DNA of 64,000 nt from Gammaproteobacteria bacterium (GTDB lineage Bacteria; Pseudomonadota; Gammaproteobacteria; JAJPIJ01). Shown here piece after piece: positions 160 through 16,219 of the stretch (within the stretch, counting starts at the first letter, position 1; the number at the start of each line of letters is the position of its first letter). The stretch lies in the NCBI GenBank assembly GCA_022072255.1, contig JAJVHZ010000011.1, positions 39,540 to 103,539 of the forward strand. Direction: 5' to 3'. Below the pieces are notes generated by a model, which was given only the letters and a program-made list of their open reading frames with translations, searched no databases and was not told where the DNA came from. A program made the position numbers and the translations under genes.

Positions 160-953
160 CGCGGGCCTCCCCGGATATCCCTGATCAACGCCGCCAGCGC
201 CGCGGCCTGTTCGCCCGCACGGCCCTCGATCATCCTCGGCCTCGGCCTCGGCGGCACGTACATGCGGCGCACGCGCGCGGCCCTGGCCGCGGCGATCGCC
301 GCGCCGTCGATCGCCAGTTCCGCGAGTGCGGGTGTGTCCACGGATCGGCCGGCCGCCTGGGTGATGCCGCGCAGCGAGGCATAGCGCGGGGTGTTGATGC
401 CGACCTGGATCGTCAACACGGCGGGGCAGCGTATGCGGACGCACTCCTCCAGGCCGCCCTCGAGCTCGCGCCGCACGAGCGCCTCGCCGGCATCGGCGCT
501 GAACTCGAGCGCCCGCACGACCGCCGCCCGGGGCCAGGCGAGCAGCGCCGCCAGCGCCACGCCCGTCTGCGCCTGGCCATGATCGGCGCCCTGGACGCCG
601 GTCAGCACCAGCGCGGGCTGCTCGCGGCGCACGAGCGCGGCGAGCACGTGGGCGATCATCATGCCGTCGCAGTCCTGCAGGCGCTCGTCCCACACCCGCA
701 CGCCCCGGTCCGCGCCCTTCGCCAGGCACTTGCGCAGCTCCGCGGTCGCATCCTCCGCGCCCACCGTCGCGGCCACCACCTCGATGTCCCCGCCGCCGCG
801 CTCCCGGATGCGCAGCGCCTCCTCCAGGGCGTAGTCATCCCACTCGTTCAGATCGCGGTCGCAGTAGTCCCGGTCCACGTCGAGGCCGTCGGCGCGCAGC
901 TCGAACTCGTCGTCCAGGTTCAGGACCTGCTTCACGCAGACGAGTATCCTCAT
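156..953 (-). CDS. etfB: Electron transfer flavoprotein beta subunit
   Basis: 265 aa beginning MRILVCVKQV, the EtfB signature N-terminus. It lies upstream of etfA in the same orientation. Confidence 0.85.
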   Translation of the reverse strand: MRILVCVKQVLNLDDEFELRADGLDVDRDYCDRDLNEWDDYALEEALRIRERGGGDIEVVAATVGAEDATAELRKCLAKGADRGVRVWDERLQDCDGMMIAHVLAALVRREQPALVLTGVQGADHGQAQTGVALAALLAWPRAAVVRALEFSADAGEALVRRELEGGLEECVRIRCPAVLTIQVGINTPRYASLRGITQAAGRSVDTPALAELAIDGAAIAAARAARVRRMYVPPRPRPRMIEGRAGEQAAALAALIRDIRGGPR

Positions 954-984
954 GACCGGCCGCAGCCTCCGCGAACGCCGCCGC

Positions 985-3423
985 TCACGCCCTGACGCGC
1001 TCCATGGCCGGGTCGTAGAGCGGGCGCAGATGCACCCGGGCCGGCACCCGCACCGTGGCGACCTCGAGCTCGTAATCGCCCGTCTCGAGGTAGTCGCGAT
1101 CGACGCCGCCGGGATTGCGTACGTACCCGTAGCCGATGCTGGCGTTCACGGTATGGCCGAACCCGCCGCTGGTCAGCCAGCCCACGCGTTCGCCGTTGCG
1201 GTATATGGTCTCGCGCCCGAGCAGGACGACTTCCGGATCGTCGACCGTGAAGCATGCCAGAGCCTTCGCGAGCGGGCGCTGCCGCTGCCCGACCAGCGCC
1301 TCGCGCCCCAGGAACGGAACGTCCGCGCCGAGCTTCACCGCCCACCCCAGGCCCGCCTCCAGCGGCGTGTTGCCGGGCGTGATATCCGTGCCCCAGGCCC
1401 GGTAGCCCTTCTCCAGGCGCAGGCTCTCGATCGCGCGATACCCGCAGTTGGCGATGCCGTGCGGGCGCCCCGCGGCCATCAGCGCCTCGTAGAGGCTCAG
1501 CGCGAATTCCACGGGGACGTGCAGCTCCCATCCCAGCTCGCCGACGTAGGTCACGCGCAGGGCGGTGACCGGCGCGCCCGCGACCTGCAGCGACCGGGTC
1601 GTGGCGAACGGGAAGGCCGCGTTCGCGAGGTCCTCCTCGCACAGCGCGGCGAGCACCGCGCGCGCGCGCGGCCCGAACAGCGAGAGCACGGCATGCGCCG
1701 AGGTGACGTCGACGAGTTCGGCGTGGGCGCCGGCGGGGATGTTGCGGCGGATCCACTCGAAGTCATGGGTGGCAAAGCCGGTACCGGTCACGATGTAGAA
1801 CCGATCGGCGGCGAGCCGCGCCACGGTCAGGTCGCACTCGATGCCGCCGCGGCTGTTCAGCATCTGCGTATAGGTCAGCGAGCCGGGGGCCCTGGCGACG
1901 TCGTTGGCGCATATCCAGGTGAGGCACGATTCGGCATCGCGGCCGATCAGCAGGAACTTCGCGAACGAGGACTGATCGAAAAGGCCCACGCGTTCGCGCA
2001 CCGCGCGGTGTTCCTCGCCCACGGCGGCGAACCAGTTCTGCCGGCCGAAGCCGTAGGCGTCCTCCGGGGCCTGGCCCGTGGGGGCGAACCAGTTCGGCCG
2101 CTCCCAGCCCAGCTTCTCGCCGAAGCAGGCGCCCGCGTCCTTCAGCCGATCGTAGAGCGGCGAACGCCGCAGCGGCCGCCCGCTGCGATGCTCCTCGTGC
2201 GGCCAGGCCACCGTGTAATGCTTGCCGTACATCTCGAGCGTGCGCTGGCGCAGCCAGCCGCTGTCGCCGTGCGGGCGTCCGAAGCGACGGATATCCACGG
2301 GCCAGAGGTCGTAGGGCGCCTCGCCCCCGGCGATCCACTCGGCGAGCGCCTTGCCGGCGCCGCCCGCCGAGGCGATACCGAAGGCGTTGAAGCCGGCGGC
2401 GACATAGTAGTTCCGAAGCTCCGGCGCCTCACCGAGTATGAAGTTGCCGTCGGGCGTGAAACTCTCCGCGCCGTTCACCAGCTTCTTGATGCCGGCGTTT
2501 TCCAGCGCCGGCACCCGGCCGACAGCCAGGTCCGTCAGCTGCTGGAAGTGCGCCCAGTCCGGCTCCAGGAGCCGGAACGCGCGCGCCGGCCCCTTGCCCG
2601 GGTCATGAGGGATGGGGTCGGGCTCGTAGCCGCCCATCACCAGGCCGCCGACCTCCTCCTTGTAGTAGGTCAGGCGGTCGGGATCGCGCAGTGTGGGCAA
2701 TGTCGGGGTCACGCCGTCGATCGGGTCGGTGATCAGGTACTGATGCTGCACCGAAACCAGCGGGACGTTGACGCCGGCGAGCCGGCCGAATTCCCGCGCC
2801 CACTGGCCGCAGCAATTGACCAGCACCTCGCAGGCGATCCGGCCCATGGAGGTCGCCACCGCGGCGACCCGCCCGTCCACGGTCTCCACGCCCGTCACCC
2901 TGCATCCCTCGATGATCGTCACGCCGCCCCGGCGCGCGCCGATCGCCAGCGCCTGCGTGATGTCCGCCGGGTTCGCCTGTCCATCGGTGGGGAGAAACGC
3001 CGCGCCGACCACATCGTCGATCTCCATCAGCGGCCACAGCGCCTTCGCCTCCGCCGGCGTCAGCAGATCCATCTGCAGGCCGAAGCTCCTGGCGGTCGTC
3101 GCCTGCCGGCGGAGTTCCGTCATGCGCGCCTCGGTGCACGCCAGGCGCAGCCCCCCGTTCATCTTCCAGCCGGTCGCCTGGCCGGTCTCCGCCTCCAGGG
3201 TCTGGTAGAGCGTCACCGAATGTCCGAGCAGCTGCGTGATGCTGGCGGACGTCCGCAGTTGTCCGACCAGGCCGGCGGCGTGAAAGCTGGTTCCGCCCGC
3301 GAGCTTCAGCCGTTCCAGCAGCACGACGTCCTTCCAGCCGAGCCTTGCCAGGTTGTAGGCCACGGAGCAGCCGATGATGCCTCCGCCGACGATGACAACG
3401 CGTGTACTGCCGGGTAGCGTCAT
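985..3423 (-). CDS. Dimethylglycine/sarcosine dehydrogenase family protein (FAD oxidoreductase N-terminal domain fused to GcvT-like aminomethyltransferase C-terminal domain)
   Basis: 812 aa. N-terminal FAD dinucleotide-binding motif VVIVGGGIIGCSVAY. C-terminal folate-binding GcvT-like region. Sits next to etfAB, its expected electron acceptor. Confidence 0.8.
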   Translation of the reverse strand: MTLPGSTRVVIVGGGIIGCSVAYNLARLGWKDVVLLERLKLAGGTSFHAAGLVGQLRTSASITQLLGHSVTLYQTLEAETGQATGWKMNGGLRLACTEARMTELRRQATTARSFGLQMDLLTPAEAKALWPLMEIDDVVGAAFLPTDGQANPADITQALAIGARRGGVTIIEGCRVTGVETVDGRVAAVATSMGRIACEVLVNCCGQWAREFGRLAGVNVPLVSVQHQYLITDPIDGVTPTLPTLRDPDRLTYYKEEVGGLVMGGYEPDPIPHDPGKGPARAFRLLEPDWAHFQQLTDLAVGRVPALENAGIKKLVNGAESFTPDGNFILGEAPELRNYYVAAGFNAFGIASAGGAGKALAEWIAGGEAPYDLWPVDIRRFGRPHGDSGWLRQRTLEMYGKHYTVAWPHEEHRSGRPLRRSPLYDRLKDAGACFGEKLGWERPNWFAPTGQAPEDAYGFGRQNWFAAVGEEHRAVRERVGLFDQSSFAKFLLIGRDAESCLTWICANDVARAPGSLTYTQMLNSRGGIECDLTVARLAADRFYIVTGTGFATHDFEWIRRNIPAGAHAELVDVTSAHAVLSLFGPRARAVLAALCEEDLANAAFPFATTRSLQVAGAPVTALRVTYVGELGWELHVPVEFALSLYEALMAAGRPHGIANCGYRAIESLRLEKGYRAWGTDITPGNTPLEAGLGWAVKLGADVPFLGREALVGQRQRPLAKALACFTVDDPEVVLLGRETIYRNGERVGWLTSGGFGHTVNASIGYGYVRNPGGVDRDYLETGDYELEVATVRVPARVHLRPLYDPAMERVRA

Positions 3424-3438: not shown

Positions 3439-4326
3439 CTATGGTCTTCCGAACCGCTGTTGAAACTCCGCCCAGGCACGCTCGAACCGCTGCAGGTTCT
3501 CGGTCGTGTAGGCGACGTAGTCGAAATCGATGGTCGAGAAGATCTCCGAGACCATGCTCCACATGCTCTCGCGCAACAGCGAGGCGCACTTCATCGCCGC
3601 GTAGCGCCGGCGCAGATCCTCGCTCGGCGCCTTCTCGAAGTACGCCTCCAGCAGCCACTCGTCCTGCTCCGGGGCGAGCGCGTTGTTGGAGGCCAGGCCG
3701 CCGAGATCGAACAGCGGGCTGTTGAAGCCGCCGTAGTCCCAGTCGACCAGCCACAGCCTGGCGCCGTCGTCGATGAAGTTGGCGGCGAGCAGATCGTTGT
3801 GGCCGAACACGATGGTGACCGGGCCCACGGCGCCCTCGAGCTGCCCGGCGAGCCGGGCGAGGCGCGGCAGCTCCGGGACCATGCGGCTGTTGTGCTCCCG
3901 CAGCGTCATGGCGTAGTCGCGCAGCACCTGGAACACCCAGAACATGGCCGCCGGACCGCGGAAGTATTTCGGGATGTCCCGATGGCAGCGTTGAATCGCC
4001 GGGACGATCCGACGCAGCATGGCGTCCTGGCGCACCATCTCCGGCGTGAGCGTCGTGCCCTCGATGTAGCGCATGACGAGCGCTCCGGCCTCCGCGTGCA
4101 CGATCTCCGGCGATATCCCCGCCGCGCACGCCGCCCGCGCGGCGGCGAGCTCGTTGGCGCGCGACACGCCGTGCACCGGCATGTCGTCTCCGATGCGGAC
4201 CACGAAGCGCTCGCCGCCGTGCTCGACCAGGAAATTGGTGTTGGTGATCCCGCCGGCGAGCGGCACCGGATTGACGGGCGAGCGCCAGCAGCCCAGTCGC
4301 ATCGCTCTCTGTCTGGCGCGGTCCAT
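3439..4326 (-). CDS. Choline/ethanolamine kinase family protein (aminoglycoside phosphotransferase fold)
   Basis: GGITNTNFLVE nucleotide-binding loop, HNDLLAANF (Brenner motif) and DWDYGGFN motifs, typical of LicA-like choline kinases. Confidence 0.65.
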   Translation of the reverse strand: MDRARQRAMRLGCWRSPVNPVPLAGGITNTNFLVEHGGERFVVRIGDDMPVHGVSRANELAAARAACAAGISPEIVHAEAGALVMRYIEGTTLTPEMVRQDAMLRRIVPAIQRCHRDIPKYFRGPAAMFWVFQVLRDYAMTLREHNSRMVPELPRLARLAGQLEGAVGPVTIVFGHNDLLAANFIDDGARLWLVDWDYGGFNSPLFDLGGLASNNALAPEQDEWLLEAYFEKAPSEDLRRRYAAMKCASLLRESMWSMVSEIFSTIDFDYVAYTTENLQRFERAWAEFQQRFGRP

Positions 4327-7515: not shown

Positions 7516-8466
7516 CTATTGCGTCCACGCCTTCCACGTCGCCTCGTTATTCTTCATCCACTCCGCGACGACGTCCTCGAGCTTGGCGCCCTCGAGATCG
7601 ATCTTGGCTATCAGTTCGCCCATCGTCTTGTTGTCGATCCGGAAGTTGCGCACCGCGGCGTACGCCTTGGGCCACTTCTCCTCTCCGCCCTTCCAGCCGA
7701 CCTTCTTGATCCAGCCGTGCGGCTTGCCGCAGTCATGGGTCTTCTTGGGATTGATGCCCCAGGCCGGATCGGTGTAACAGGCGTCCTCGTACTCGGGAAA
7801 CGCCACCCATTCGCCCTCGTACTTGATGGGCGCCCAGTGCGGCGTGTAGATCCAGAGCAGGATCGGGGCCTGGCGCTGGTAGGCCGACTCCAGCTCCGCG
7901 AACATCGCCGCGTCGGTGCCGGCATGCACGACCTCGAAGGGCAGTTCCAGCGCCTCGACACGCTCCTCGTCGAAGCCGCCCCAGGTGACCGGGCCGCCGA
8001 GATAACGACCCTTCGGCGCGGTCTCGGGGGTGGCGAAGGCCTCCCCACACTGCTTCAGCGCCTCCCAGTTCGGCAGCCCCGGACACTTCTCCTTCATGTA
8101 GGCGGGGAACCACCATTCCTCCTTCGCCTCCATGCCCGTCTCGCCGAGGTCGATCGTCTTTCCCGTGGCGAGCGAGGCGTCCATCGCCTCCTTGCCCGTG
8201 GTCTGCCAGATCTCCATGGCGACCGCCAGGTCCCCGGTCTCCAGACCGGCGAACTGCGCGAGGTAGTCGGCCTGCACGTACTCCACGTTGTAGCCCATCG
8301 ACTTCAGCACCTCACCCATGATGTGGGTGGTGACGTACTGGCCGGTCCAGTCGTGTATGGTCAGCTTGATGGGGTCCTGAGACTCGGCGGCTGGTGCACT
8401 GCCACAGAGCCCCCACGTCAGCCCCAGCAACATGCTGCCGATCAGTCTGCGCCGCTGTGTTTTCAT
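7516..8466 (-). CDS. proX: Glycine betaine-binding periplasmic protein (ProX-like substrate-binding protein)
   Basis: The track ORF runs to 8748, but a signal-peptide start MKTQRRRLIGSMLLGL lies at 8466, preceded by AGGAGG. Trp-rich binding-cage residues fit the ProX family. Confidence 0.75.
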   Translation of the reverse strand: MKTQRRRLIGSMLLGLTWGLCGSAPAAESQDPIKLTIHDWTGQYVTTHIMGEVLKSMGYNVEYVQADYLAQFAGLETGDLAVAMEIWQTTGKEAMDASLATGKTIDLGETGMEAKEEWWFPAYMKEKCPGLPNWEALKQCGEAFATPETAPKGRYLGGPVTWGGFDEERVEALELPFEVVHAGTDAAMFAELESAYQRQAPILLWIYTPHWAPIKYEGEWVAFPEYEDACYTDPAWGINPKKTHDCGKPHGWIKKVGWKGGEEKWPKAYAAVRNFRIDNKTMGELIAKIDLEGAKLEDVVAEWMKNNEATWKAWTQ

Positions 8467-9565: not shown

Positions 9566-9593
9566 TTGACATAGTTAGCTACCTAACTATAAT
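9566..9593 (+). promoter_or_regulatory. Near-consensus sigma-70 promoter (TTGACA-N16-TATAAT) with an inverted-repeat operator (TAGTTAG-N5-CTAACTA) in the spacer
   Basis: TTGACA at 9566-9571 and TATAAT at 9588-9593. The spacer tagttagctacctaac contains TAGTTA/TAACTA inverted arms. Lies immediately upstream of the MarR gene. Confidence 0.6.
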
Positions 9594-9600
9594 GGGCGCC

Positions 9601-10104
9601 ATGCTGCAGCTCAAAGACCTACCCGACGCCCTGATACTCGGCAAATTCGCCGACCGCTACGGGGCGGTGGATGTCGATGCGGTGCTCCAGTTCCTGAGCA
9701 TCCTTCGCATCGGGACCGATCTTTCCGAGGCCCTGGACGGCTTTCTGGCCAGACGCGGCCTGCTTCAGGGCCGCTGGTGGGTGCTGATCCTGCTCATGCG
9801 CGAGGATGACCTGACCTCGACACCGTCGGAGCTGGCGGAAAAATCCGGCGTCAGCCGGGCCACCATGACCCGGCTGATCGACGGGCTGGCGCGCGACGGC
9901 CTGGTGAAACGCCTGGGCGACCGCAGCGACCGCAGGAAGTACTCCATCAGGCTGACCGCGGCCGGGCAGGCCAGGCTGGACGAGGTGATGCCCGAATACT
10001 ACCCGCGCGTGAAGCGCATGATGAAAGTCCTGTCCGCAGCGCAGCGCGAACAGCTATTGCAGAACCTGCTGCTGCTCAAGGAGCGCAGCAAGGTATTCCA
10101 GTGA
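9601..10104 (+). CDS. MarR family transcriptional regulator
   Basis: Winged-helix region TPSELAEKSGVSRATMTRLIDGLARDGLVKRLGDRSDRR. Start is ambiguous: the track's 9592 overlaps the -10 box, so 9601 is used and the mRNA may be leaderless. Confidence 0.75.
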   Translation: MLQLKDLPDALILGKFADRYGAVDVDAVLQFLSILRIGTDLSEALDGFLARRGLLQGRWWVLILLMREDDLTSTPSELAEKSGVSRATMTRLIDGLARDGLVKRLGDRSDRRKYSIRLTAAGQARLDEVMPEYYPRVKRMMKVLSAAQREQLLQNLLLLKERSKVFQ

Positions 10105-10190: not shown

Positions 10191-10646
10191 ATGAACAAGT
10201 TCTTTGCAACCGCCCTCACCGCAACCCTGGCCCTGGGTCCCACCCATGCCGCCCATGCCGGCGACGATACGCGCGCCATCGTCGAGGCCGCCAACGCGGC
10301 GTGGAACCAGGCCCTGAACAGCGGCAACCCGCAGGCCCTGGCCGCTCTATACACGGAAGACGCCATCCTGTCGCCGGGAAACGGCAAGGCGCTGGTCGGA
10401 CGCGCGGAGATCGAAGCGCTGTTCCGCGGCTTCGTCGAGGCCGGTGTGCACAACCACACCCTGGAAATCATCGAAGTGGGCGGCACCGACACGCTGATCT
10501 ACCAGGTGGCCCGCTGGAGCGCGCAGGGCGCCGCCACCGCCGATGGCAAGACTCCCAGCTTCGGCGGAGTCACCACCAGCGTGCTGGAAGAGGGCCAGGA
10601 TGGAGCGTGGCGCGCGCGCAGCCACGTATGGAACGCCGTTCAATAG
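10191..10646 (+). CDS. Secreted SnoaL-like/DUF4440 (NTF2-fold) protein
   Basis: Signal peptide MNKFFATALTATLALGPTHAAHA, then an NTF2-like domain (AIVEAANAAWNQALNSGNPQALAALYTEDAIL). AGGAG ribosome-binding site. Confidence 0.6.
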   Translation: MNKFFATALTATLALGPTHAAHAGDDTRAIVEAANAAWNQALNSGNPQALAALYTEDAILSPGNGKALVGRAEIEALFRGFVEAGVHNHTLEIIEVGGTDTLIYQVARWSAQGAATADGKTPSFGGVTTSVLEEGQDGAWRARSHVWNAVQ

Positions 10647-10985
10647 CCGCCCGAGCAAGGCCGACGCACGCGGCACCTGCATGCGGCTGCATATCGCCGG
10701 CAGGTCATCTGCGCAAGGATGCGCGGATGCGCGCGTGCGGCCACGCACCGTAATCGCCGTCTCTGTCGCGCCCGGCTGGTCTTCGGCCAGCAGGGCGCGG
10801 CGGGCGCTTCCACGCCATCTCCGGGGATGAGGTACATAGAGGGCTCGCGCCGGTCAGGACCATCCTCTGGAGCAGCGCGGCATGGTGCCGGACAGCGCGC
10901 AAGGACGTGTCGGCAAAATGGACATCGCGTGCCCGCAGACTAGACTTTGCGATATTCATTCATCGGTCCGGACGGCGGATGCGGC

Positions 10986-11405
10986 ATGGCCATGCTGTCA
11001 ACACCGCGAATCCTGCGTCGCGAGGCAGCGCGACTGAGGCCTCTGGTCGTGTCTGCAATTGCCCTGTTCGCCCTCGCCTCGGACATCGAGGCCCAACAGC
11101 GCGCCGTCATCGTCAATGGCGAACTTCTCGATGACGAGGGCCTGACGCTGATTGACCAGCTGAATTGCGGGCAACCGGTTGGCGACGGAATATATGCGTT
11201 GGATCTCGGGTCGCGAACCTGGGGCTACGCCGACAGTGAGGAGCGCCAGGCGCTGCCCGATTGCGAGGCGGTGGCGCCCGTCGGCGAGGACGAGGTTGTG
11301 GAGGCGCCGGGATCTGAGGAGCCCGCCACGGCCGACGATTGCGAAAGCCGCTATGAGTACTTCGAGGACCGGATGATGTACTGCTACGGCGTCAGCCCCC
11401 CCTGA
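10986..11405 (+). CDS. Hypothetical small secreted protein with four Cys and an acidic C-terminus
   Basis: Coding-like GC3 bias. Predicted signal peptide (LRPLVVSAIALFALASD). No recognisable family. Ends 30 nt upstream of the next gene. Confidence 0.4.
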   Translation: MAMLSTPRILRREAARLRPLVVSAIALFALASDIEAQQRAVIVNGELLDDEGLTLIDQLNCGQPVGDGIYALDLGSRTWGYADSEERQALPDCEAVAPVGEDEVVEAPGSEEPATADDCESRYEYFEDRMMYCYGVSPP

Positions 11406-11435
11406 GGGGACTTACGCCGCGAGGGGGGGTACTCG

Positions 11436-13034
11436 ATGTCGAGGCTGCCAGGCCAGATCTGGATGATCCTCATTGCGGCCGGCGTCCTGTCGCTGATTGC
11501 CTCACTGCTGATCGGCTATCTGTATCGTCGCGCGCTGATCCGCCACATGGGCGGCAGGGCGTCGGATGTGTCGGAAGCGGCCGCGCCACCGGCGGCGATC
11601 GCCGACCGGCGCATGGCCGGCACCCTCGCCGGACGCTACCCCACCGGTTCCGAGAACCGCGCGGCCCAGCGCCGCCTCACGTGGTACATCCTGGCCTTGA
11701 CCGCGTTGGTTGCAGTGTCGGCGGCGGCCCTGCAGTGGCTGCTGCTCTTCGATGTCGAGCTGACGCCCCGGCGGCTGCTGGTCCAATCCGCCGCCTACTT
11801 CTGGATGGCGCTGCCCGCATTGGCCGTGGCCTGGCGGTGGCGGCGCCGGACCCTGATTGCCGCTCTCGCCGTCTATTACGTCCTGTTCGTGGGATTCGGG
11901 ATGAGCCAGTCGACCGAGGCCCAGCAGCTGTCCACCGTCATGAAGCACGGCGCCTTCGCCATCGGCATGCCCATGGTGATAGTGATGCTTTTCGGCCTCG
12001 GCGGCGTGACGCGCGCCATCGGCAGCTGGCTGCTGCCGATCTTCATCCTGCTCGCGGCGGCATCGACGGCGGGCGCCGAGTTTCTCTTCCAGCTGATGGA
12101 GACGTCACCGCGCCTCGTCGAAGGGGCGCTGCAATACCTGAGTGCCGAGGCGGTGATCGCGGGTGCCGTCCTCACCCCGTGGATGCTCGCGATCCTCCCG
12201 GTCGTGTGGCTCTCGCGCCTCGTCGACGGGCTCTACCGGCGCAAGCTGTTCTCGGAGCTGGCCTGGCTGATGACCTCCTTCTGGTTCGTCTGCCTGACGC
12301 TCGAAGTCGCCAGCGGCATGCACGGCGCAGGATTCCATGCACTCTGGATGTATCTGCCGATGCTGTGGTTGCCCGTCACCTTCTACGCGCTGCGCCGTGC
12401 GATGGCGCCGCGGTCGCGGCCGCCCATGCTGCTGGTGTTGCGCGTGTTCCAGCGCGATCGGGAGATGGAGGCGCTGTTCGACGCCGTCATCGAGCGCTGG
12501 CGGGTGACCGGCAACGTGGCGCTCATCGCCGGCACCGATCTGGTCTCGCGCACGATCGACCCGGGCGAGATCTTCGCCTTCCTCGGCGGCCGCATCGACA
12601 GGCAGTTCATCGCCTCCGTCGAGGGCATCCCGGGACGCCTCGCCGCGTTCGACCTGCAGCCGGACATCGAGGGCCGCTACCGCATCAACGAGTGCTATTG
12701 CCGCGACACCACCTGGAAGCCGACGCTCGCTGCCCTGGTCGAGATGAGCGACGTGGTCCTGACGGATCTGCGGCGTTTTCAGGCGCACAACGAGGGCTGT
12801 CGCTACGAGCTCGGGATACTCGCGCGCGCGCGAAACATCGCCCGGGTGGTCGTGCTGTTCGACGGCAAGACCGATCGTGCAGTCGCCGCGCAGGACACGG
12901 CCGGCGCGCCGGCCACGCGTTTCCACTGGATGGACGTGACGTCGCGTGGCAGAGCCGGATGGCGGGAGGCATTGCAGGCCCTGTTCGTCGAACTCCCGGA
13001 CGCGGGCGGGCGGACGGCGCGTCGCGCCGCCTGA
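11436..13034 (+). CDS. Hypothetical polytopic membrane protein (about 8 TM helices) with an about 200-aa cytoplasmic C-terminal alpha/beta domain of unknown function
   Basis: 532 aa. Hydrophobic N-terminal two-thirds rich in Trp. C-terminal region has alternating hydrophobic beta-strand-like segments (LLVLRVF, VALIAGTD, VVLTDLR, RVVVLFDGKTD). No confident family assignment. Confidence 0.55.
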   Translation: MSRLPGQIWMILIAAGVLSLIASLLIGYLYRRALIRHMGGRASDVSEAAAPPAAIADRRMAGTLAGRYPTGSENRAAQRRLTWYILALTALVAVSAAALQWLLLFDVELTPRRLLVQSAAYFWMALPALAVAWRWRRRTLIAALAVYYVLFVGFGMSQSTEAQQLSTVMKHGAFAIGMPMVIVMLFGLGGVTRAIGSWLLPIFILLAAASTAGAEFLFQLMETSPRLVEGALQYLSAEAVIAGAVLTPWMLAILPVVWLSRLVDGLYRRKLFSELAWLMTSFWFVCLTLEVASGMHGAGFHALWMYLPMLWLPVTFYALRRAMAPRSRPPMLLVLRVFQRDREMEALFDAVIERWRVTGNVALIAGTDLVSRTIDPGEIFAFLGGRIDRQFIASVEGIPGRLAAFDLQPDIEGRYRINECYCRDTTWKPTLAALVEMSDVVLTDLRRFQAHNEGCRYELGILARARNIARVVVLFDGKTDRAVAAQDTAGAPATRFHWMDVTSRGRAGWREALQALFVELPDAGGRTARRAA

Positions 13035-13101
13035 AGCGGATGCGCATCTGGCGAGCGACCATCTGCAGCGCGCGGCGAGCCGAACTCAGGGCACGGTGCT
13101 G

Positions 13102-13192
13102 TCACACCGTCCGCCACACGATGTTCCGATGAGTCATGATCCCTTGCAGGAAGCTGGTGGGCGCAGCAGGATTCGATCCTGCAATCAGGGGA
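13102..13192 (-). pseudogene. Degenerate partial copy of the tRNA-CAU 3' half plus its downstream flank (pseudo-tRNA, possible att remnant)
   Basis: About 75% identity over roughly 100 nt to 14122-14225. Shared blocks are tcacaccgtccg, tgagtcatga and tggtgggcNcagcaggattcgaNcctgcaa. No 5' acceptor strand is present. Confidence 0.5.
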
Positions 13193-13331
13193 ACATTAGC
13201 GGGCGGCCAGCAGATAGGAAATTCATTGATCGGCCACTTGCGGCGCCTGCTCTGCGCCAAATGGCGGTTGGCGCAATTCAGAGAGCTGGCAGCGCGGTGA
13301 GCGTTGTCATAGCGGATTGGGGGATATGGGC

Positions 13332-14024
13332 ATGTCAGATACGGCGTTGATTGTTGGCGTGGGCAAGGGCTTGAGTGCGTCGATTGCGCGTCGCCTGGCT
13401 CGCGAAGGTATGCAGGTCGGGATGGCTGCGCGAAATACGGAGAAACTGACCGAACTCGCAAGAGATACAAGGGCGCGAACGTACGCCTGCGATGCATCTG
13501 ACGCGGCTGCGGTCTCGAAGCTGTTCGAGATGGTGGAAGCCGAAGTCGGTATACCCGGGCTCGTGGTATTCAACGCCAGTGATCGCTATCGTGGACCGAT
13601 AGAGACACTTGACCCGGAGCAGGTATGGCGCTCCTACGAGCAGTCCGCGTTTTCAGGATTCCTGGTGGCGCAAGCGGCAGCCAAGTGCATGTTGAGAGCA
13701 GGCCGAGGCTCAATATTTTTCACGGGTGCTACAGCCAGCGTGAAGGCGCTGCCAAGCTCGGTTCCTTTCGCCATGCCGAAATTCGCGCTTCGAGCGTTGG
13801 CGCAAGCCCTTGCCCGTGAACTGTCACCGAAGAATATTCATGTGGCGCATTTCGTGATCGATGGCGGTATCGCTACGAGCTGGACTCGCCCTGGCGAAGA
13901 GGGGCCGCCGGACAGATGGCTCAGCCCGGACGCGATCGCGGAAACTTACCTCCACATCCATCGCCAGCACAGAAGTGCGTGGACGTGGGAGATCGAGCTT
14001 CGGCCGTGGACTGAAAAGTTCTAG
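13332..14024 (+). CDS. Short-chain dehydrogenase/reductase (SDR) family oxidoreductase
   Basis: N-terminal TALIVGVGKGLSASIARRLAREG Rossmann motif and typical SDR length. Start at MSDTALIVG. Confidence 0.7.
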   Translation: MSDTALIVGVGKGLSASIARRLAREGMQVGMAARNTEKLTELARDTRARTYACDASDAAAVSKLFEMVEAEVGIPGLVVFNASDRYRGPIETLDPEQVWRSYEQSAFSGFLVAQAAAKCMLRAGRGSIFFTGATASVKALPSSVPFAMPKFALRALAQALARELSPKNIHVAHFVIDGGIATSWTRPGEEGPPDRWLSPDAIAETYLHIHRQHRSAWTWEIELRPWTEKF

Positions 14025-14192
14025 CGGGCATTGAGGGGGTATCCAGGCAAACAGTCATCCGTTGGATCAGCCACCGGCGGCGCTCGCTCGGTGCCGAATG
14101 GGGGTTGGCCAAAGCTGGTGTCGATGAAACGTGGGGCAGCTCACACCGTCCGGAGCAGGATGTGCAGGTGAGTCATGAGTCCCTGGGGGAAA

Positions 14193-14268
14193 TGGTGGGC
14201 CCGGCAGGATTCGAACCTGCAACCAAGGGATTATGAGTCCCCTGCACTAACCGTTGTGCTACAGGCCC
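14193..14268 (-). tRNA. tRNA with CAU anticodon (tRNA-Met or, more likely, lysidine-modified tRNA-Ile2)
   Basis: Reverse complement GGGCCTGTAGCACAACGGTTAGTGCAGGGGACTCATAATCCCTTGGTTGCAGGTTCGAATCCTGCCGGGCCCACCA folds as a cloverleaf with anticodon CAT and an encoded CCA. Variable loop and anticodon stem resemble ileX-type tRNA. Position downstream of rpoD matches E. coli ileX. Confidence 0.85.

Positions 14269-14353: not shown

Positions 14354-16219
<1,866 letters not shown>

Follow-up and report, generated by a model that had tools for sequence, protein, structure and literature searches.

A two-gene cassette that pairs a small exported protein with a polytopic membrane protein carrying a Rossmann-like domain of a not-yet-described family

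What is encoded by two adjacent, unannotated genes in a 64-kb stretch of gammaproteobacterial DNA (the window, meaning the whole sequence analysed), and do the two belong together? The open reading frames (ORFs) concerned, A (10947-11405) and B (11436-13034, 532 aa), lie on the plus strand 30 nt apart, as an earlier note on this DNA had recorded. That note described a small secreted cysteine-containing protein and an eight-helix membrane protein with an unassigned cytoplasmic alpha/beta domain, and proposed an accessory, membrane-associated sensor or effector system beside a tRNA gene. The analysis reported here partly supports that interpretation. B resides in the inner membrane and belongs to a large family, as yet unnamed, whose architecture is fixed; its C-terminal part is a three-layer Rossmann-like domain of a not-yet-described family. 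A and B are a real two-gene cassette, A accompanying B only in this gammaproteobacterial clade.

The C-terminal domain of B was modelled with AlphaFold 2 (AF2) both by itself (predicted local distance difference test, pLDDT, 87.7) and within the full-length protein (47 sequences; pLDDT 84.7, predicted template modelling score, pTM, 0.86). Six strands alternate with helices in it, at residues 331-335, 360-365, 417-422, 440-444, 470-475 and 496-500. In the full-length model they are preceded by a first helix (4-39), a variable cytoplasmic linker of low confidence (about 40-70) and long helices reaching to residue 318. The Arg/Lys-rich loops (27-84, WRWRRR at 133-138, 192-198, DGLYRRK at 264-270 and RRAMAPRSR after 318) are all on one side, and the N-terminus would therefore be outside and the C-terminal domain, by the positive-inside pattern, in the cytoplasm. 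Models and loops thus bear out the cytoplasmic Rossmann-like domain of the earlier description. The count of eight helices fared less well. Hydropathy gave eight clear hydrophobic segments and a weaker ninth at about 300-318, whereas AlphaFold placed residues 274-318 (window 12255-12389) with high confidence in a single 45-residue helix with Arg/Lys clusters at both ends; this could be a hairpin overlooked by the model or a membrane-embedded helix that does not cross. B is thus polytopic, as claimed, with seven to nine crossings and not firmly eight. Conserved residues of the membrane part are W123, R134-W135, R193-A194, P248-W249, P308, W311 and P313.

Conservation is higher in the C-terminal domain, where mean column identity in the near subfamily is 61-62%, compared with 49% for the whole protein. 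Invariant throughout the family are R336, W355, G359, D368, R416, C422, W427, D444, R446, G454 and E458. After strand 1 (331-335) comes R-V-F-Q-R-D, which contains no Gly, and a GxGxxG-type loop is therefore lacking. D368 lies three residues past strand 2, where classical NAD(P)- and FAD-binding Rossmann domains have an acidic residue; this by itself does not establish membership of a Rossmann family. D444 ends strand 4 and E458 is on the next helix. Residue 447 (window 12774-12776) is Arg in the window's B; in most homologues, among them the 98%-identical P0001, it is the Gly of 'DLRGF', and across the family this position is variable (G/S/N/D/Q/A/R).

Neither the curated families of Pfam, NCBIfam and PADLOC nor any solved structure claimed B, in keeping with the earlier failure to place it, and no confident match to a housekeeping family was seen. 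Foldseek with the full model gave recurrent weak matches to PpnN/LOG proteins and none for the membrane part. Single family members from three alignments (57, 47 and 27 members) were scanned against Pfam at E ≤ 10. Nothing was found for the membrane part, but the C-terminal domain gave sub-threshold echoes of Nuc_deoxyrib_tr (PF05014, NDT) in 19 of 57, 15 of 47 and 6 of 27 members (best E 5e-4). For the window's own B the score was 14.1 bits (E 0.053), below the gathering cut-off of 28.8 bits. These matches reach only profile positions 58-99, which in the window's B correspond to residues 433-476 and so take in strand 4, strand 5 and the Glu-bearing helix between them; the invariant E458 falls inside this region, where it may correspond to the catalytic Glu that NDT enzymes have at the start of the helix after strand 4. 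The earlier suggestion of a TIR-like domain was not upheld: when the domain alignment was compared by hhalign with seven TIR_2 proteins from the neighbourhoods, the probability came to 0.4-0.5%, and TIR_2 was matched by 1 of 57 members (E 0.12). The hallmarks of SLOG/LOG domains are a Gly-rich motif and PGGxGTxxE; the B domain had neither a SLOG/LOG family-profile match nor these motifs. The likeness of its fold to NDT, SLOG and TIR domains is a lead, not a membership. Profile searches of the PDB with the three alignments returned only a spurious XRCC4 (E 0.006), designed armadillo repeats and SRP54 (E > 0.1), none of them significant.

SRP54 brings in another reading, that the C-terminal domain is a degenerate P-loop NTPase of the SIMIBI class (SRP54/FtsY/ParA-like) which has lost its Walker A motif and acts at the membrane as a non-catalytic scaffold or dimerisation switch. 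SRP54 recurs as a sub-threshold Pfam echo (9 of 57 and 5 of 27 members, best E 4e-4), and SRP54-type matches in the PDB profile searches fall on the same stretch (433-476) as the PF05014 match. The family pattern 'SDVVLMDLRGF..N.GC..EL..LA....RVVVLVD..TD' aligns position by position with SRP54 'DVVIMDTAGR....G.MDEL.......EVLLVVDAMTGQ', weak Foldseek matches include Ffh/FtsY, ParA/ParF and Gtr1/2, and some distant members have 'RVFxLGK[KR]S' after strand 1. However, all the scores are insignificant (PDB E 0.3-0.5), the Walker A motif GxxxxGK[ST] is absent after strand 1 in the window's B and its subfamily, the loop of the window's B containing neither Gly nor Lys and some distant members having no more than 'LGK[KR]S', and the G of 'DLRGF' is not conserved. 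We consider such an origin quite improbable.

The layout of B, in which a polytopic membrane domain precedes a cytoplasmic Rossmann-like one and acidic D368 lies past strand 2 as in dinucleotide binders, would also suit a transporter or ion channel of ordinary homeostasis, its C-terminal domain being a regulatory ligand sensor (like RCK/KTN on K+ channels, or KefC) and A being unrelated or loosely associated. Yet 47 members scanned at E ≤ 10 gave no match to TrkA_N or any other transporter family (B also lacks matches to adh_short and NmrA), and RVFQRD stands after strand 1 in place of the classical Gly loop. No solved structure resembles the membrane part, its periplasmic loops are short and show no selectivity motif, and the neighbourhoods described below are unlike those of ion homeostasis. 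A transporter or channel therefore seems very unlikely.

How large and how uniform is the family? Full-length homologues of B number 116 (36-98% identity); every one carries the annotation hypothetical, and Pfam domains are lacking in all of them. The profile of the B domain, searched against clusters at 50% identity (E ≤ 1e-3), matched 2213 clusters, 880 of them at E ≤ 1e-30, and in almost all of these the domain comes after some 330-400 residues. All of the 99 distant full-length representatives have 6-10 hydrophobic segments ahead of it; in 42 of the 99 the membrane part has diverged so far as to be undetectable by the hidden Markov model of B's own N-terminal part. Extras such as TPR repeats or an RDD domain are rare. 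No curated library names this domain family of more than 2000 sequence clusters, and a search of the literature on TPR-S, DUF7379, DUF4399 and conflict systems found no description of a B-like protein. Tandem same-strand paralogues of B were seen in Hydrogenophaga and related organisms (L079, L082 and L050), 40 nt apart in the first two.

The start of A was examined next to its database counterpart. P0117, from a gammaproteobacterial metagenome-assembled genome (MAG), is 139 aa long, 100% identical and begins at the ATG at 10986, which is preceded by a GGA-rich, Shine-Dalgarno-like stretch and is probably the true start. The N-terminus is positively charged and continues into a hydrophobic, signal-like stretch, LRPLVVSAIALFALA; the mature part is acidic, and its four Cys (in LNCG, PDC, DDCES and YCYG) are kept in every aligned homologue. 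The signal-like segment and the Cys agree with the earlier description, and suggest that A is a Sec-exported, disulphide-bonded periplasmic protein. It has only 14 homologues, none with a Pfam domain, and gave no family match in Pfam, NCBIfam or PADLOC scans. The ratio of non-synonymous to synonymous substitution rates (dN/dS) against four relatives was 0.19-0.42 for A and 0.31-0.46 for B, which shows that both genes are coding and constrained and not chance ORFs; the constraint was judged looser than on core genes. From their spacing, A and B are probably co-transcribed. A C7...G7 inverted repeat (11396-11429) extends over the end of A, stop codon included, and over B's Shine-Dalgarno sequence and, as a hairpin, could influence translation of B.

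Whether B is always paired with A, a question raised in the earlier note, has a divided answer. A lies directly upstream of B in all six sampled members of B's own clade (at least 50% identity: the window, L003, L084, L085, L087 and L088). The flanks of the cassette vary among these relatives, in line with the accessory context proposed earlier. In L088-L090 (B 88% identical) the left flank is as in the window, in L085/L086 (85%) the order is trypsin-like protease, A, B, tRNA-Met, rpoD, in L087 (84%) A, B, alkyl-sulfatase, and in L003 (82%) trypsin, A, B, ETF-alpha. L084 is the most distant (B 54%, A 47%), with a 65-nt gap between the genes. The ETF block adjoins the cassette in L003 but lies 4 kb to its left in the window, and the A-B pair therefore moves as a unit. 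Outside this clade the pairing does not hold: tblastn of 82 related loci found A in only one, L003, directly upstream of the B homologue, and A was not found in the rest of the B family. The pair is thus conserved in close relatives and absent in distant ones. As the other clades lack A, it is not obligatory for B; nor is B obligatory for A, since two of three more distant contigs have A without B.

The narrow range of A (those two contigs, the single tblastn hit and some 14 homologues in all) would be expected if A and B were mere neighbours of unrelated function, their pairing being synteny inherited in a narrow clade. Against this, the pair has been kept through at least four different flank combinations and in relatives whose A is only 47% and whose B is only 54% identical, with a gap of 30-65 nt and a strong Shine-Dalgarno sequence for B. 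Divergence and purifying selection are alike in the two genes, and an analogous small exported protein occupies the same slot in another B clade: a signal-peptide protein with DUF4399 (132-144 aa), unrelated to A, lies 16-25 nt upstream of B in a Denitromonas/Zoogloeaceae clade. This suggests that a small periplasmic protein with B is a recurring pattern, and mere adjacency is on balance unlikely. The DUF4399 protein was seen in L044, L065, L067, L069 and L070 (at about 7540-7985 in L065, L067 and L070).

Some further features of the window clade may be recorded here. A trypsin-like serine protease is encoded directly upstream of A-B in L003 (6597-7508) and L085 (1-825), where the window has MarR and SnoaL-like genes instead. 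The possibility that A is a Trypco-type partner of this trypsin gene was rejected solely on A's missing Pfam match. L084 encodes a TIR_2 protein with a hydrophobic segment (789-1754, minus strand), divergent from the A-B pair. In L090 (2165-3951) a 584-aa version of B, P0002, extends into the opposite-strand tRNA-Met gene (3876-3951); either the gene was apparently called too long or its stop codon has changed.

Evidence on the function of B came from its neighbours in other genomes. Genes in the 82 loci were called with a GC3 filter and clustered, and cluster representatives were annotated with Pfam and PADLOC; genes on the same strand with gaps of at most 150 nt were taken as a putative operon. 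A conflict-type gene was present in the putative operon of B in 35 of 76 loci, and within 6 kb of B in 45 of 82. Clustering of B sequences at 50% identity gave six clades, five of which have conflict-type neighbours. The commonest neighbour is a protein of about 1800 aa with two DUF7379/LCAT-type lipase domains, CHAT and TPR-S repeats (the CHAT giant), which occurs in 21 of the 22 loci of one clade; in the window clade the corresponding counts are 6 of 6 for A, 2 of 6 for trypsin-like protease and 1 of 6 for TIR. Further partners are Peptidase_C14 caspases, TIR_2 proteins and TPR-S proteins with a TIR-like stretch. RlpA-like genes also occur, and a BTAD-AAA_16 STAND-type protein and other alpha/beta hydrolases were found as single cases. 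The gene of a 231-aa M15 peptidase stands between those of the CHAT giant and B, at distances of -3 to +20 nt, PGAP1-like hydrolase genes overlap the stop codon of B, and a patatin gene 22 nt downstream of B matches the model of the CBASS phospholipase effector (CapV-type) with E 2e-44. Such narrow gaps, from -3 to +22 nt, point to translational coupling. PADLOC effector models for patatin, TIR and caspase match some neighbours of B homologues; neither the CHAT giant nor the M15 peptidase matches PADLOC.

A conserved putative operon in the order CHAT giant, M15 peptidase (220-300 aa), B, with gaps of -63 to +20 nt, was seen in Rhodocyclales, Rhodoferax and related MAGs (L015, L018, L019, L021, L022, L026, L037, L039, L040, L046, L052, L062, L064 and L076), B starting near position 8001 in most of these loci. 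In Dechloromonas sp. A34 (L002, 8107-13575) a cluster resembling a contractile injection system (phage sheath, gp19 tube, Pvc16_N) lies downstream of the CHAT-lipase giant, M15 and B. Patatin genes 22-58 nt downstream of B were found in L010 (9573-10739), L046, L051 and L059, with no nucleotidyltransferase noticed beside them.

Because B forms putative operons with cell-dismantling enzymes in five of the six subclades, it is probably linked to defence or stress signalling at the membrane and may be a component of conflict modules. Our tentative reading, held as possible and with some reserve, is that B, with a pocket of nucleotide type, serves a conflict-type system as its membrane sensor or effector. 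The recurrent weak PpnN/LOG and Nuc_deoxyrib_tr matches count in favour of this reading. R336, D368, R416, C422, D444, R446 and E458 may line a pocket for a phosphorylated, ribose-containing ligand; D368, just past strand 2, is at the site of the ribose-binding acid of classical Rossmann folds. The domain would bind a nucleotide ligand or act upon a nucleotide, and this event would be coupled to the membrane module, giving signalling or permeabilisation. B would then be the membrane-resident sensor or the executing component of a module for abortive infection or programmed cell death. The window would hold a minimal form, B with the periplasmic accessory A and no dedicated effector, in which A could contact the short outer loops of B. 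A wider and doubtful proposal sees in the B family the conserved core of membrane-based immunity or programmed-death systems of a class not described before, in which the 7-9-helix sensor, bearing a nucleotide-processing Rossmann-like domain of a new kind, would detect envelope perturbation, sometimes through a small periplasmic co-receptor (such as A or DUF4399), and then make, destroy or bind a nucleotide signal controlling interchangeable executioners (CHAT-lipase giants, M15, CapV-like patatin, TIR).

Several observations weigh against the tentative reading. The function of B is argued by guilt by association throughout, and in the window itself the association is missing: no TIR, caspase, patatin, lipase or M15 partner was found in the whole 64 kb, nor any homologue of the partner genes known elsewhere. 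The sensor or effector idea of the earlier note has therefore gained indirectly, from B homologues in operons with caspase/CHAT, TIR, patatin and lipase genes, and has found no effector partner at the locus that prompted it. PADLOC (PADLOC-DB 2.0, E ≤ 1) had no match for A or B. Foldseek with the domain-only model reached at best E 1e-3 and TM ≤ 0.45, a generic fold assignment, the domain has no Gly-rich loop after strand 1, and the SRP54 echo, as weak as that of NDT, competes with it. The architecture of B is never shuffled, unlike that of the usual conflict-system modules; no copies were found on plasmids or phages by tblastn or on viral contigs by scanning; and one distant member stands alone among the housekeeping genes gidA and dnaJ and a radical-SAM gene. 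The contigs that carry A alone are a further point on this side.

A self-contained enzyme or transporter is accordingly a serious rival. As an enzyme, B would be embedded in the membrane and serve envelope lipid or glycan metabolism, its domain using a nucleotide-activated donor or a lipid head group at the inner leaflet while the helices hold the lipid that is acted upon; envelope remodelling, and not immunity, would then account for the lipase, peptidase and RlpA neighbours. Such a role would suit the fixed, self-contained architecture across 2213 clusters, the many invariant charged residues, the conserved WRWSR (133-137), TRA (192-194) and Y267 on the cytoplasmic loops adjoining the domain, the lipases, M15 peptidase and RlpA-like genes nearby, and the one distant member in a housekeeping context. 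However, no signal of a glycosyltransferase, acyltransferase or phosphotransferase family was obtained at any threshold, B has one Rossmann-like lobe where GT-B enzymes have two, and the distribution is patchy, with matches to B, by the patterns used, in 204 of 185,579 species representatives. The position of B also shifts between close relatives, and its neighbours are caspases, TIR proteins and CBASS-type patatin, with no biosynthetic genes. An envelope enzyme seems, on these grounds, somewhat doubtful.

The features of the locus are collected in Table 1.

Table 1 Features of the A-B cassette and its surroundings in the window
Feature	Position	Strand	Remarks and basis
MarR gene	9592-10104		Upstream of cassette
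DUF4440/SnoaL protein gene	10191-10646		Upstream of cassette
Sigma-70-like promoter match TGGACA-16-TAGACT	10919..10946	+	Consensus scan, 9/12 matches; weak pattern match only
Gene A	10986..11405	+	139 aa, predicted Sec-type secreted, four conserved Cys; mechanical ORF begins at TTG 10947
A-B spacer, 30 nt	11406..11435	+	Strong Shine-Dalgarno GAGGGGGGG and C7/G7 inverted repeat, read from sequence
Gene B, membrane part, residues 1-322	11436..12401	+	N-terminal transmembrane helix, variable low-confidence linker (~36-70), 6-8 more membrane helices
Gene B, cytoplasmic Rossmann-like alpha/beta domain, residues ~325-505	12408..12950	+	AF2 models, alignments, domain profile
Gene B, variable C-terminal tail and stop codon	12951..13034	+	Low pLDDT, poor conservation
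Ancestral B-to-tRNA spacer and decayed 3' half of old tRNA-Met copy	13035..13199	.	Pseudo-tRNA 13155-13199, minus strand; direct repeats, pattern search
Inserted segment, ~1 kb (~1.04 kb)	13200..14140	+	SDR gene only (13317-14024, Pfam adh_short); outside cassette
Intact tRNA-Met (CAT)	14193..14268	-	ARAGORN
rpoD	14354-16219	-	ORF list; rpoD domains in relative L085

The gene order is betaine-binding protein (minus strand), DeoR, MarR, DUF4440/SnoaL, A, B, SDR, tRNA-Met (minus) and rpoD (minus). The tRNA with a degenerate duplicate, which the earlier note had placed beside B, is indeed duplicated: positions 13102-13199 repeat 14141-14237 (the 3' 45 nt of tRNA-Met and 52 nt beyond) with 76-82% identity. 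B is not directly beside the intact tRNA, however, as the SDR gene intervenes. The segment 13035-13199 is collinear in alignment with the B-to-tRNA spacer and tRNA 3' half of L085, where an intact tRNA-Met follows B after 120 nt, and the SDR segment is absent between B and tRNA-Met/rpoD in both L085 and L090. Its GC content is about 0.59-0.60, compared with 0.67-0.69 for B. From the collinearity and the lower GC it is concluded that the SDR segment was in all probability inserted into the tRNA-Met gene, restoring its 3' half and leaving the duplicate; the ancestral order is A, B, tRNA-Met, rpoD. As the tRNA-derived repeat brackets the SDR segment and not A-B, the duplicate is an event separate from the cassette. 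A third copy of the tRNA-derived repeat, such as would enclose A-B in an island, was sought in the window and not found, and the annotated neighbours included no integrase.

For the window itself the gain is modest: an orphan cassette has been delimited well and its evolutionary history is clear. The family matters more, as the recurrent operon partners of B are enzymes of bacterial self-killing during infection. If the association is functional, the B family would be a missing membrane component of caspase/lipase/TIR systems and a tractable entry point to them, with one gene needed, or two with A. If B is an envelope enzyme instead, it still represents a large unannotated family worth naming.

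Four groups of known proteins invite comparison. NDT, LOG/SLOG and TIR domains reportedly act on or sense nucleotides in conflict systems. The B domain shares with them a three-layer alpha/beta fold of about 130 core residues and, in the helix that strand 4 leads into, an invariant Glu with G-[CT] before it ('GCxxEL'), at the site of the weak PF05014 matches, and its genomic company includes TIR and a CBASS-type effector. It differs in that no member reaches any family threshold (the hhalign probability against TIR_2 being 0.4%), in an insertion of about 50 residues with an extra strand between strands 2 and 3, in its many invariant Arg and invariant or near-invariant Cys (C422 and C455), and in its constant fusion to a polytopic membrane module.

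Nucleotide-gated membrane effectors of anti-phage systems include the TM-Macro ThsA of type II Thoeris, the TM effectors of CBASS and Pycsar and CARF-TM proteins, and typically have 2-4 helices. B resembles them in joining a membrane module to a cytoplasmic nucleotide-type domain, in adjoining TIR proteins and a CapV-like phospholipase at some loci, and in its patchy, mobile distribution. Unlike them it matches no PADLOC model, has 7-9 helices and keeps one fixed architecture throughout its family; no CD-NTase or cyclase was recognised among its annotated neighbours, and in the window it has no partner at all. With channels and transporters bearing RCK/KTN domains B shares the succession of a membrane domain and a cytoplasmic Rossmann-type domain, as well as the acidic residue past strand 2, whereas it lacks a TrkA_N match, a Gly-rich loop and a recognisable pore or transporter fold.

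According to Kaur et al. 2020 (PMC7159879), domains of the caspase superfamily never occur without a gene for an alpha/beta-hydrolase, and these pairings are effectors of conflict systems. B lies outside the vWA-MoxR, GTPase and STAND cores described in that paper, a term search of which returned no multi-pass membrane protein with a Rossmann-like domain, and the window has no caspase or hydrolase partner. The point in common is that the commonest neighbour of B unites two lipase-like DUF7379 domains with a caspase-like CHAT domain and TPR-S repeats.

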